Below, piece by piece: positions 19,084 to 33,792 of a stretch of 64,000 nt of DNA. The stretch comes from a virus: the IMG/VR virus record IMGVR_UViG_3300049216_000067. One strand, 5' to 3'. Numbering within the stretch: the stretch's first letter is position 1; each line of letters starts with the position of its first letter. The notes beneath the pieces were generated by a model. The model did not search any database. It saw only the letters and a program-made list of their open reading frames with translations, and was not told where the DNA came from. The translations under genes and the position numbers were made by a program.

Positions 19084-19410
19084 GTGGTGGGTTATTCTGT
19101 TTCCAAGAAACCCACCGAAACTCAGAGCAGAATTACGCAGCTAGTGCGAAGTCCTGTTCAAACATGTCATCGTTAGATGCATTTATAGTTTTGCACTTTC
19201 ACGGTTGTTACCTACCGGATAGCCCTTGGTGTATTACTTGCGAAGTCGATACCAGTTCAGGCCCATCAGAAAGATACTGCGACGTTAGCTCTATCACTCG
19301 GCATTAAGCTAACTGCTGCCTGATAACAGTCAGTATCTTTTTGGTGGACCTGTGGGGAGTCGAACCCCAGTGTTCCGCACCTTTAGTCAAAGGTTTACTA
19401 TCATTCAAAC
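19084..19410 (-). ncRNA. ssrA: Circularly permuted (two-piece) tmRNA, tag ASNDDMFEQDFALAA*
   Basis: The 3' piece GGGGTTCGACTCCCCACAGGTCCACCA (CCA end 19342) precedes the 5' piece GGGCCTGAACTGGTATCGAC (G1 at 19264). G3-U70 pair. 77-nt intervening hairpin. Tag ORF at 19180-19133. Confidence 0.93.
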
Positions 19411-20580: not shown

Positions 20581-20657
20581 TGGTTCCCGTGACAGGAATC
20601 GAACCCGCGACGCATCGTTTTAGAGACGACCGCTCTTAGCCACTGAGCTACACGGGA
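20581..20657 (-). tRNA. Amber suppressor tRNA (anticodon CUA)
   Basis: Full cloverleaf with UCCCGUG/CACGGGA-ACCA; anticodon arm GUCGU-CUCUAAA-ACGAU; GGUUCGAUUCC T arm. Confidence 0.9.
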
Positions 20658-23030: not shown

Positions 23031-23627
23031 TTAAATTGAATCTGGTTTACCGTTGTTCACCAGTAATTGACAAATATCATACGCACAGTCGGCAACAGGA
23101 TCGTGCTTATGTACAGTATCTTGATCCATCCACGGAACAGGAGCGTAACCATGAACGCAACCTTCTACCGTAAGATCTAGCGCGGTTCTAACATCGCGCC
23201 AATTGGAATAATGTGTGAATACTGGGTGATCAGCTGATCTACACAGACTCTCAAATACAACTTGATCCAAACCACCACGTTGCCAAAACATGACCTGAAA
23301 ATTCTTTTTCATGTCCATGCTACAACCACTGAGTGTGCGAATTTTTTCTAATCCTTCCAATAAAGGAAGATCATCAGGCTTCGGCGTAAGACTGACATCA
23401 CGTACTAATTTAGAACGCTTAGACCACCATTCTAATGTGGCTTTATCGACAGTTCTCTTATATTTGGTGATCTGTTCGCGTGCATCTAACTTGATGAAGT
23501 GAGCACGATTCAACAAATCTTTGTAAACTGGTTTTTCATCTAATGCGAATTCTATCATTGCAATTGACAAAACAGCAGCACTACTTTCAACATCCAAAGT
23601 TTCAATATCAAACATTATATGACGCAT
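23031..23627 (-). CDS. dexA: DEDD 3'-5' exonuclease (DexA-like)
   Basis: FDIETL, TLEWW, W.RG..D, WRDVRT, HDPVADC. Confidence 0.82.
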   Translation of the reverse strand: MRHIMFDIETLDVESSAAVLSIAMIEFALDEKPVYKDLLNRAHFIKLDAREQITKYKRTVDKATLEWWSKRSKLVRDVSLTPKPDDLPLLEGLEKIRTLSGCSMDMKKNFQVMFWQRGGLDQVVFESLCRSADHPVFTHYSNWRDVRTALDLTVEGCVHGYAPVPWMDQDTVHKHDPVADCAYDICQLLVNNGKPDSI

Positions 23628-32297: not shown

Positions 32298-32372
32298 TGG
32301 TGCTCTGTTGCAGATTCGAACTGCATTCTCTGACTTACGAAATCAGCACATCTCCTGTTATGTTTACAGAGC
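32298..32372 (-). tRNA. tRNA-Thr(CGU)
   Basis: Cloverleaf, loop UUCGUAA, CCA. Confidence 0.85.
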
Positions 32373-32393: not shown

Positions 32394-32609
32394 TTGACTG
32401 CTCATAGCCGCTGTTCTGTTTCTAATCTATCATTTCTCTAAGCCTTAACCCGATCTTTGCTCCTATACCTTCGGAAACGATCTGTTTAAGTTGCTCACCG
32501 CCGTTTACGGTATCAGTAGTACAAACGTCTTTAGACTTCTACAGGGTATCGGTGAGCAGCGAACTTCCTCGATGGGTCTCCTTACCCTCCGCGATAGATC
32601 GACAGTCAA
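32394..32609 (-). ncRNA. rnpB: Minimal RNase P RNA
   Basis: P1 UUGACUG/CAGUCAA, P2 AUCUAUC/GAUAGAU, GAGGAAGUUCGCUG pairing with ACAGAACAGCGGCUA (P4), GCUCACCG/CGGUGAGCAA, P15 with GGU, UAGAGAAAUG. Confidence 0.85.
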
Positions 32610-32796: not shown

Positions 32797-33139
32797 CTTT
32801 ATCTCCTGCTTTGATTTTCTCTTTGTCGATTCTAGCTCTTTCTTTATCGACAATTCTCTGCATTTTAACAAGATCGTTTTTCGCTTTCTCTAAAATAGAA
32901 ATAGCCTCGTTGATCTTGTCAATTTTTAAACTGTCCACCTCTTCATAACTTTCAAAATCCCAATTGATTACCCTATTGCAGTCACCGAGAGACATATTGA
33001 AATCAATTTGAAGATAGTCTTTATCGGGTGTTTTACCCTTCTTAACTTTCACATAACCTTTATATCGTATATAGCTACCTGTCTCAAACTGGTCGATGAA
33101 ATCGCCACCGGTCGTTTTAAATAGGATATTTTCATCCAT
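32786..33139 (-). CDS. Hypothetical protein
   Basis: Start at MDENIL. Confidence 0.65.
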   Translation of the reverse strand: MDENILFKTTGGDFIDQFETGSYIRYKGYVKVKKGKTPDKDYLQIDFNMSLGDCNRVINWDFESYEEVDSLKIDKINEAISILEKAKNDLVKMQRIVDKERARIDKEKIKAGDKDGD

Positions 33140-33521
33140 CACTTGTCTCCTGTTCTTCGTCTGGAAGTATAGCATTTTTATCTACTTCTTTCCAGAGACC
33201 GTCGTCTTTCACTTCGACTTTAATCTTGCGCATTTGGCGTTCTACATTGTCCTGAATGACTGCTTCTTGACCAGTTCTCTTTAAGAATTCCAAATGACGC
33301 CAGTCTTCAAACTTCTTGGTCTTTGCCATGCGCTCAAACGCAAGAGAACGGTTCTGGTGCTGACTTCGATGATCTTCAGCATAACCGTGGGCACCTGAGG
33401 CACGATGGGTGCAATGGACCGCAGAATTGGTTTTATTCTTCTTTTGACCACCGTTGCCGGTGCCGCGAGTGTATGACCAATCGGATGCGGTAACGGAGAA
33501 TACTAATTCACGCTTACTCAT
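33132..33521 (-). CDS. RF-1-domain GGQ protein (ArfB/PrfH-like peptidyl-tRNA hydrolase)
   Basis: RGTGNGGQKKNKTNSAVHCTH.ASG...RSQHQNR..A. Confidence 0.88.
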   Translation of the reverse strand: MSKRELVFSVTASDWSYTRGTGNGGQKKNKTNSAVHCTHRASGAHGYAEDHRSQHQNRSLAFERMAKTKKFEDWRHLEFLKRTGQEAVIQDNVERQMRKIKVEVKDDGLWKEVDKNAILPDEEQETSDG

Positions 33522-33792
33522 GTTTTGCACTCAAATTTAATTCTTGCATATATTCGTCAGAATATTTTGCATTCACTGTAAAGATTGATCCTGCTGATCT
33601 GCTCATTGGTTGCACAGCAGCCAACTCGATCATTTGTTCGCGAAATTTCTTTTTAATGAATTCGTGTAGTTTCTGTCGAGTTTCCGGAGTATTTGGCATC
33701 CCTACGAAATCTTCAAAACAAGTCGGATTAGAAGCTATGATTTCATAGAATTCATCAGCATCTAAAGTTTCGGATTCAGTTTCTTTTTTCAT
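33514..33792 (-). CDS. Hypothetical protein
   Basis: Packed ORF. Confidence 0.6.
   Translation of the reverse strand: MKKETESETLDADEFYEIIASNPTCFEDFVGMPNTPETRQKLHEFIKKKFREQMIELAAVQPMSRSAGSIFTVNAKYSDEYMQELNLSAKHE

Follow-up and report, generated by a model that had tools for sequence, protein, structure and literature searches.

Does a phage that carries a large set of transfer RNA (tRNA) genes also carry the ribozyme needed to mature them? The question is raised by a short segment of a 64,000-nucleotide stretch of viral DNA, IMG/VR record IMGVR_UViG_3300049216_000067, which we call the window. On its minus strand, from position 32609 down to position 32394, lies a gene of 216 nucleotides, counted from P1 to P1, for what would be a miniature ribonuclease P (RNase P) RNA. 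To our knowledge, the gene for RNase P RNA, one of the few universal ribozymes, has been regarded as belonging to cells and organelles only. We show that the element is almost certainly a homologue of RNase P RNA: this holds because a family of related sequences covaries in the expected pairs, because members of the family match three Rfam models, below threshold, and because the residues match those of Escherichia coli M1 RNA. We then argue that the element is probably a miniaturised bacterial type A RNase P RNA, used for the 5'-processing of the tRNAs of the phage.

The proposed structure can be read directly on the sequence. A script that checks each proposed pair finds a standard one, either Watson-Crick or G-U, at every one of the 66 positions, and the conserved regions (CR) and junctions follow one another in the bacterial type A order, namely CR-I, J5/15, CR-IV and CR-V. 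An nhmmer profile of the family described below recovers a single copy in the window, at 32616-32390 on the minus strand, with an E-value of 6.5e-29. The parts of the element are the following.

32394..32609, minus strand: whole gene (nhmmer profile, and 66/66 standard pairs)
32602..32609, minus strand: 5' strand of P1, UUGACUGU, paired 8/8 with 32394-32401
32394..32401, minus strand: 3' strand of P1, GCAGUCAA, partner of 32602-32609
32593..32600, minus strand: 5' strand of P2, GAUCUAUC, paired 8/8 with 32424-32431
32424..32431, minus strand: 3' strand of P2, GAUAGAUU, partner of 32593-32600
32570..32591, minus strand: P3 hairpin, 7/7 paired
32557..32570, minus strand: CR-I, GAGGAAGUUCGCUG, including the 5' strand of P4, aligned to E. 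coli rnpB
32563, minus strand: bulged U of P4, equivalent of E. coli U69
32494..32556, minus strand: P5 (7/7 paired), with the enclosed 5' strand of P6 and the stub of the specificity domain
32545..32549, minus strand: 5' strand of the P6 pseudoknot, AUACC, paired 5/5 with GGUAU at 32465-32469, in the P17 loop
32442..32493, minus strand: J5/15 (CAA), P15, the L15 internal loop (AAACA/GGGUU), P16 and P17
32448-32450, minus strand: CCA-binding GGU of L15, aligned with E. coli G292-G293-U294
32431..32440, minus strand: CR-IV, or J18-2 equivalent, UAGAGAAAUG, aligned to E. coli UAGAUGAAUG
32406..32423, minus strand: J2/4 and CR-V, AGAAACAGAACAGCGGCUA (AGAAACAGAA CAGCGGCU), with the 3' strand of P4 at 32406-32413

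The core is framed by P1, P2 and P3, and P2 crosses P4. Helix P4 is formed by AG(U)UCGCUG/CAGCGGCU, paired 8/8 around the bulged U, and helix P5 by CUCACCG/CGGUGAG, at 32550-32556 and 32494-32500, followed by CAA. What remains of the specificity domain (S domain) is held in the 49 nucleotides between the two strands of P5, with three helices S1, S2 and S3. There is no P18 in this copy: the stretch between P15 and CR-IV reads GGC-UUAGAGAAAUG. An earlier note on this DNA had listed the elements of the catalytic domain (C domain) in this order, and all the motifs that it listed are indeed present on the minus strand, from 32609 to 32394. Its compensated P4 pairing and its missing P18 also hold in the window's copy. 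The truncation of the S domain stands as well, with a remnant of 49 nucleotides instead of the 55 or so that had been estimated. The P6 pseudoknot, AUACC/GGUAU, whose first strand lies just 3' of P5, was absent from that list.

Folding energy is uninformative alone: the minimum free energy of the window's copy is unexceptional when compared to shuffled sequences (z = -0.69), and its centroid fold gives P1, P2, P3, P5, P15 and P16. No sizeable open reading frame (ORF) lies over the element, and a 43-amino-acid ORF on the plus strand is the only one that overlaps it.

The comparison of many sequences, on the other hand, is informative. A blastn search with the 3' block of the window's copy leads to LR756501, a 735-kilobase (kb) uncultured phage, in which a complete second copy is found: its P1, P2, P4, P15 and P16 differ in sequence from those of the window, and pair identically. 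Two pattern scans of IMG/VR yield 60 instances, 43 of them non-redundant, on contigs of up to 476 kb; one member, L047, is nearly identical to the window. The search patterns fixed CR-I and part of CR-V, and a first scan was too loose, with CR-I in only 10 of its 119 matches. A third scan was anchored on J5/15, L15 and CR-IV only; 81 of its 111 matches are due to chance, and about 30 are true members. Near-full-length members are recognised by the family profile at 93 fetched loci, nearly all of them in viral contigs.

The covariation test uses a structure-blind MAFFT alignment of 38 members, called A2, on which a structure of 59 pairs that includes both pseudoknots is imposed; pair counts on A2, together with the nhmmer profile, represent the family in what follows. 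Standard pairs occupy 85.8% of the cells of A2, against 61.3% in shuffled data, and none of 500 shuffles reaches the observed value. When the partners are slid by 1 to 3 columns, only 31-43% of the cells pair. Both sides change at 52 of the 59 pairs, and the covariation score is 0.597, compared to 0.09-0.14 for the slid structures.

Compensatory changes appear in every helix across the family. In P1, sequences that are unrelated, and helices that vary from 7 to 16 base pairs, still pair in most members. Both sides change at 8/8 pairs of P2; in P3, 88% of the cells are paired and five of the six pairs covary. Helix P4, with 99.7% of its cells paired and up to five types of pairs at its inner positions, bears out the compensated pairing claimed earlier, and P5 reaches 99.3% with covariation at 4/4 pairs. 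The P6 pseudoknot is paired in 80.6% of its A2 cells, with both sides changing at all five pairs, and P15 and P16 are 90-93% paired, and covary. Finding the same architecture at 93 loci, with compensatory changes, is more than chance would produce.

Some residues remain invariant although the search patterns did not impose them: the AA of J5/15, the G of L15 and the AG..AU of CR-IV, with the GU of L15 nearly so. The GAGGAA of CR-I is kept in 28 of the approximately 30 members of the third scan, which were chosen without using it, and in these members CR-I and CR-V are otherwise variable (ACAGAA/ACAAAA; GGCUA/GCCUA/AAUUA), the two strands of P4 changing in concert.

Two variations of the family deserve a separate mention. 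In a sub-lineage represented by the IMG/VR contigs L218, L241 and L282, CR-I reads GAGGAAAUUGG and CR-V reads ..CCAAUUA; the two strands of P4 seem to pair throughout and to lack the bulged U that is universal elsewhere. The P18 position, columns 261-296 of A2, is occupied by one or two extra hairpins in about half of the members, the second one often closed by GAAA; the window's copy and the remaining half have no hairpin there.

That the family is one of RNase P RNAs is first suggested by Rfam. The best score of the family against RF00010 (RNaseP_bact_a) comes from a copy in DLP6, a cultured Stenotrophomonas phage with a complete 168-kb genome, whose record has no feature over the element:

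KU682439.2:105774-106022 (L286:1304-1552 in the fetched locus), plus strand: unannotated copy of 249 nucleotides, 3 nucleotides upstream of a tRNA-Arg(CCG)

This copy scores 54.7 bits, with E-values of 3e-15 and 9e-16. Two other members match RF00373 (RNaseP_arch), L154 with 43.8 bits and an E-value of 2e-11, and L157 with an E-value of 9e-4; a fourth, L147, matches RF02357 (RNaseP-T) with 30.9 bits and an E-value of 6e-3. These four matches fall exactly at the coordinates of the element and span the full model. Their alignments map P1/P2, P3, CR-I, J5/15, P15-P17, the L15 CGGGU, CR-IV and CR-V, and the S-domain blocks shrink in them from 85 to 17 and from 110 to 20 positions.

Residues were compared using the genuine E. 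coli rnpB, which encodes M1 RNA (L285:717-1093). The P4 of the window aligns to E. coli A67-G74 / C353-U359, with the bulged U at U69, and is one base pair short at its outer end, having lost one nucleotide on each strand. The L15 loop is AAACA/GGGUU in the window and AAAUA/GGGUA in E. coli. The P6 pseudoknot, which joins the P17 loop to a strand located 3' of P5, tells type A RNAs from type B RNAs; together with the L15 loop, it is a bacterial type A feature, and the better scores obtained by some members with archaeal models probably reflect size, not ancestry.

More generally, the order and pairing of P1, P2, P3, P4 with its bulged U, P5, P6, P15, the GGU of L15, P16 and P17 are those of the bacterial type A RNA (E. 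coli M1/rnpB, RF00010), and CR-I, CR-IV and CR-V are recognisable by sequence. The window's copy differs from that RNA by its length, 216 nucleotides against 377 in E. coli, by the reduction of the S domain (P7-P14, CR-II and CR-III, which reads the tRNA elbow) to the 49-nucleotide stub, by the lack of P18, and by its location in a phage genome, within a tRNA array. The element is thus, as far as its sequence and pairing tell, a new, phage-specific variant of the bacterial type A ribozyme with a reduced S domain. The central proposal of the earlier note, a phage-borne miniature RNase P RNA whose catalytic domain is intact, is supported by the covariation, by the Rfam matches of the homologues and by the E. 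coli correspondence.

The resemblance to the archaeal type T RNA of Pyrobaculum and other Thermoproteaceae (RF02357) calls for a comparison. Type T RNAs are also about 200 nucleotides long, and have also kept the catalytic domain while losing nearly all of the specificity domain. Their sequence and their protein subunits, however, are archaeal, whereas the phage RNA has P6, the GGU of L15 and, in two phages, an rnpA-type protein. The window's copy has no match to RF02357, and the best score in the family, the 30.9 bits of L147, is well below the 60-bit gathering score of this model; type T and the phage RNA therefore look like convergent reductions, and not like one family. In the earlier note, this small size is said to be shared by archaeal type T RNAs only; very small P RNAs also occur in mitochondria. 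The other natural point of comparison is man-made: isolated C domains and engineered deletions of the 'Micro P' type, which retain pre-tRNA cleavage, especially with a protein cofactor. Their content, the C domain alone, is that of the phage RNA; they are laboratory constructs, while the phage RNA is natural and evolutionarily maintained, and its S domain is replaced by a stub, small but conserved.

We now turn to the surroundings of the element. The window belongs to a T4-like phage, with gp32, UvsX, baseplate proteins and a gp33-like coactivator. Its family B polymerase shares only about 42% identity with the polymerases of the closest cultured phages. Nearly all its genes, all its tRNAs and the element itself are on the minus strand. 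The element starts 5 nucleotides past the stop codon of a possible ORF, and is followed by a tRNA gene:

32298..32372, minus strand: tRNA-Thr(CGU) with an encoded CCA, 21 nucleotides downstream of the element (Rfam, 49.5 bits; missed by ARAGORN)

Directly after this tRNA comes another ORF, whose ATG abuts the CCA. The tRNA-Thr(CGU) is a likely co-transcribed substrate, and a cut at its 5' end would set where the P RNA stops on its 3' side.

The union of the ARAGORN and Rfam predictions gives about 37 tRNA genes in the window, and not the 39 first announced; ARAGORN undercounts tRNAs, as the missed tRNA-Thr next to the element illustrates. Among the 34 genes that it does find, 33 encode the CCA end and 32 have a pyrimidine at position -1, which is a U in 21 cases; many of the tRNA spacers in the window are only 4-10 nucleotides long. 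These properties match those of an enzyme that would rely on contacts between L15 and the CCA end, and between J5/15 and nucleotide N-1. The T loops are canonical (UUCGAnU or UUCAAnU) in 28 of the 34 tRNAs, and odd in only 3 to 5 of them, which leaves little of the argument that linked the truncated S domain to an abundance of non-canonical T loops. The association with tRNAs extends to the family: 27 of 43 members have a tRNA within 500 nucleotides, and it is on the same strand in 27/27 cases.

Other genes of the window also touch on RNA metabolism and translation. An ORF of 198 amino acids at 23034-23627, minus strand, contains an Rv2179c-like 3'-5' exoribonuclease domain (PF16473, 56 bits), and could trim the short 3' trailers of CCA-encoding tRNAs, complementing a 5'-processing ribozyme. 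A permuted, two-piece transfer-messenger RNA (tmRNA) at 19133-19402, a tRNA with the amber-reading anticodon CUA at 20581-20657, labelled Pyl by ARAGORN, and an RF-1-domain, ArfB-like ORF at 33135-33530, all on the minus strand, form a cluster of translation-rescue and recoding functions.

How widely is the element distributed? A blastn search of two members, L120 and L136, against deposited phages returned nothing. In representative genomes of 185,579 prokaryote species, where about 13 chance matches were expected by our estimate, a two-anchor pattern occurs in 7 contigs, and only one of them, L289, is a true member according to the profile; it is a 3-kb contig of a metagenome-assembled genome, with 13 tRNAs. 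The family, at least in this sequence form, is essentially confined to phages, and with only one true member among prokaryote genomes, a recent capture from a host is unlikely.

Bacterial RNase P RNA has a protein partner, RnpA, and an rnpA-like gene is found above the Pfam cut-off in 2 of 10 element-bearing records:

L169:1498-1797, minus strand: RnpA-like gene of a 476-kb IMG/VR record, RNR motif intact (KRAVDRNRIKRLM)
LR745206.1:76444-76752 (L288:1501-1809 in the fetched locus), plus strand: RnpA-like gene of the 635-kb phage LR745206, RNR motif intact (KRAVDRNRIKRLM)

The two proteins are near-identical around the RNR motif. In the 476-kb record, the gene has a ClpP-like gene as its neighbour, instead of the rpmH-rnpA-yidC arrangement of bacteria; LR745206 also has a divergent but complete mini P RNA. 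These two phages may thus encode a complete RNase P holoenzyme of their own. The DLP6 genome has no rnpA, and smaller phages would therefore presumably use the RnpA of their host.

What, then, would the element do? Both modules with which a type A RNA contacts its substrate, the adenosines of J5/15 and the GGU of L15, are kept in the predicted structure, and isolated C domains of bacterial P RNA, as well as archaeal type T RNA, cleave pre-tRNA. The strict conservation of catalytic and substrate-binding features, and the co-occurrence of a phage RnpA in two genomes, make an active 5'-processing enzyme for phage tRNAs the most likely reading, one that we hold with fair, not full, assurance. The RNA would be transcribed together with the neighbouring ORFs and the tRNA-Thr, and, once folded, would bind the host RnpA through the surface that CR-IV, CR-V and P15 still provide; a few very large phages would supply an RnpA of their own instead. 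The complex would then cleave the 5' leaders of the densely packed, CCA-encoding pre-tRNAs of the phage, which it would recognise by their acceptor stem, their nucleotide at position -1 and their CCA end, and not by the elbow formed by the T-loop and the D-loop. The result would be a capacity for tRNA 5'-processing that belongs to the phage during infection.

Several results weigh against this proposal. The first ones concern Rfam: the RNase P models of Rfam 15 have no match to the window's copy, either at the gathering score in the whole window or with E <= 10 in a slice of 501 nucleotides; RF00010 finds nothing with E <= 1 when five element-bearing records of huge phages are scanned whole; and all the matches of the family to the RNase P clan are below gathering, which is set at 100 bits for RF00010 and 60 bits for RF02357. 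The covariance-model check proposed in the earlier note is thus negative for the window's copy and positive, below gathering, for its homologues. The length of the slice may matter: a slice of 281 nucleotides around the DLP6 copy (L286:1285-1565) has no Rfam match, while a slice of 1051 nucleotides and the whole locus both give 54.7 bits. We treat this blank as an edge or filter effect; very short slices can lose matches to long models, and this may bear on the blank of the 501-nucleotide slice of the window.

The other adverse results concern the core, the partner and the expression of the element. Its J3/4 and P4 are one nucleotide below the universal GAGGAAAGUCC / GGCUUA, with GAGGAAGUUCG and GGCUA in the window, and the invariance of CR-I and CR-V in the main alignment comes in part from the way the sequences were selected. 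No Ribonuclease_P domain (PF00825) is found among the ORFs of the window, and no rnpA in DLP6 or in 7 other element-bearing records. Finally, a scan for promoters and terminators finds none flanking the element, which makes its co-transcription likely.

Some of these results feed the main rival of an active enzyme, which is a decoy or regulatory role: the element would be an RNase P-like RNA, catalytically dead or irrelevant, that sequesters the host RnpA or competes with M1 RNA, thereby shutting down or redirecting the maturation of host tRNAs. There is a precedent, since the RNase P-like RNA of camelpox and other orthopoxviruses has been discussed as a possible decoy (PMC3001073). Like the phage element, that RNA is virus-encoded and related to RNase P, and it is the only other such precedent that we found; it differs in belonging to a eukaryotic virus, in being a relative of the H1/MRP type, in lying outside a tRNA array and in having no bacterial core. 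The hypothesis also agrees with the loss of the S domain, a contributor to substrate affinity, with the nucleotide missing from J3/4 and P4, and with the fact that, most element-bearing phages being without rnpA, the RNA must meet the RnpA of the host. However, a decoy needs only a surface for the protein, and yet the bulged U of P4, the adenosines of J5/15 and the GGU of L15 are invariant or strictly kept. The phage tRNAs retain the matching CCA ends, the element is embedded in same-strand tRNA arrays, and a phage with its own RnpA, as in the two huge ones, makes little sense if the purpose is sequestration. We consequently consider a decoy unlikely.

There is also the possibility of an active ribozyme whose main targets are not ordinary tRNAs: the precursor of the two-piece tmRNA, permuted or odd tRNA-like RNAs, the junctions between messenger RNA and tRNA in polycistronic transcripts, or RNAs of the host. 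The window does contain a permuted tmRNA, a tRNA with a CUA anticodon and a few tRNAs with odd T loops, and the element sits between an ORF and a tRNA that is itself directly followed by another ORF. Against this, most T loops are canonical, the constant companion of the element across the family is an ordinary tRNA array, and not a tmRNA, and the copies of DLP6 and of many other members lie directly beside standard tRNAs. Such a specialised role seems distinctly improbable.

The last hypothesis, under which the element is a non-functional relic captured from a host rnpB, resembles RNase P RNA by accident, or serves as a coding or cis-regulatory segment, is hardly credible: the unexceptional folding energy, the missing Rfam match of the window's copy and the overlapping 43-amino-acid ORF would agree with it, but a relic would not keep its pairing where the sequences of P1, P2 and P5 are unrelated, 93 loci hold near-full-length homologues with compensatory changes in all helices, two pseudoknots included, the ORF is short and is not conserved in register, and the single true member among the prokaryote genomes argues against a recent host origin. 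We thus rejected a relic of host rnpB as effectively refuted by the covariation of the family, and protein coding on the grounds that this plus-strand ORF is the only one over the element.

Theta ribozymes, which are HDV-like (related to the ribozyme of hepatitis delta virus), adjoin tRNAs in gut phages, and were proposed to lessen the dependence of phage tRNA maturation on host RNases (PMC10879173). They are, like the RNA described here, encoded by phages and placed in tRNA arrays; unlike it, they are small and self-cleaving, and act in cis on 3' trailers, whereas the element, an RNase P homologue, would act in trans on the 5' end. The same paper leaves 5' maturation to cellular RNase P (PMC10879173).

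In the full-text literature, whose coverage excludes most subscription journals, we came across no description of an RNase P RNA encoded by a phage, and no paper that pairs 'DLP6' with 'RNase P'. The main text of the huge-phage paper has no RNase P, rnpA, rnpB or ribozymes. The paper that describes an rnpB finder reports the smallest P RNAs, types M and T, as archaeal only, and never mentions phages. With somewhat less assurance than for the activity itself, we are inclined to a broader claim: the element may be the first virus-encoded active RNase P ribozyme and the smallest natural P RNA of bacterial type, a natural 'C-domain-only' enzyme of the tRNA arrays of large phages, one that would pair up with the RnpA of the host when the phage is T4-like and with a phage RnpA when the genome measures 476-635 kb, and that would free 5' maturation from the host rnpB and from elbow recognition.

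RNAs of this class escape the Rfam models and rnpB finders in use today. In the case of DLP6, the element explains an unannotated gap in the genome of a cultured phage, which makes the hypothesis directly testable at the bench, and makes DLP6 the most practical system for experiments. For RNase P itself, the family would amount to a natural deletion experiment, in which the S domain, and often P18, would be dispensable, while P4 with its bulged U, P6, J5/15 and the GGU of L15 would not. With a conserved phage family, RNase P RNA would gain a viral branch, and the translation toolkit of large phages, with its tRNAs, tmRNA and release-factor-like proteins, would extend to the maturation of tRNAs.

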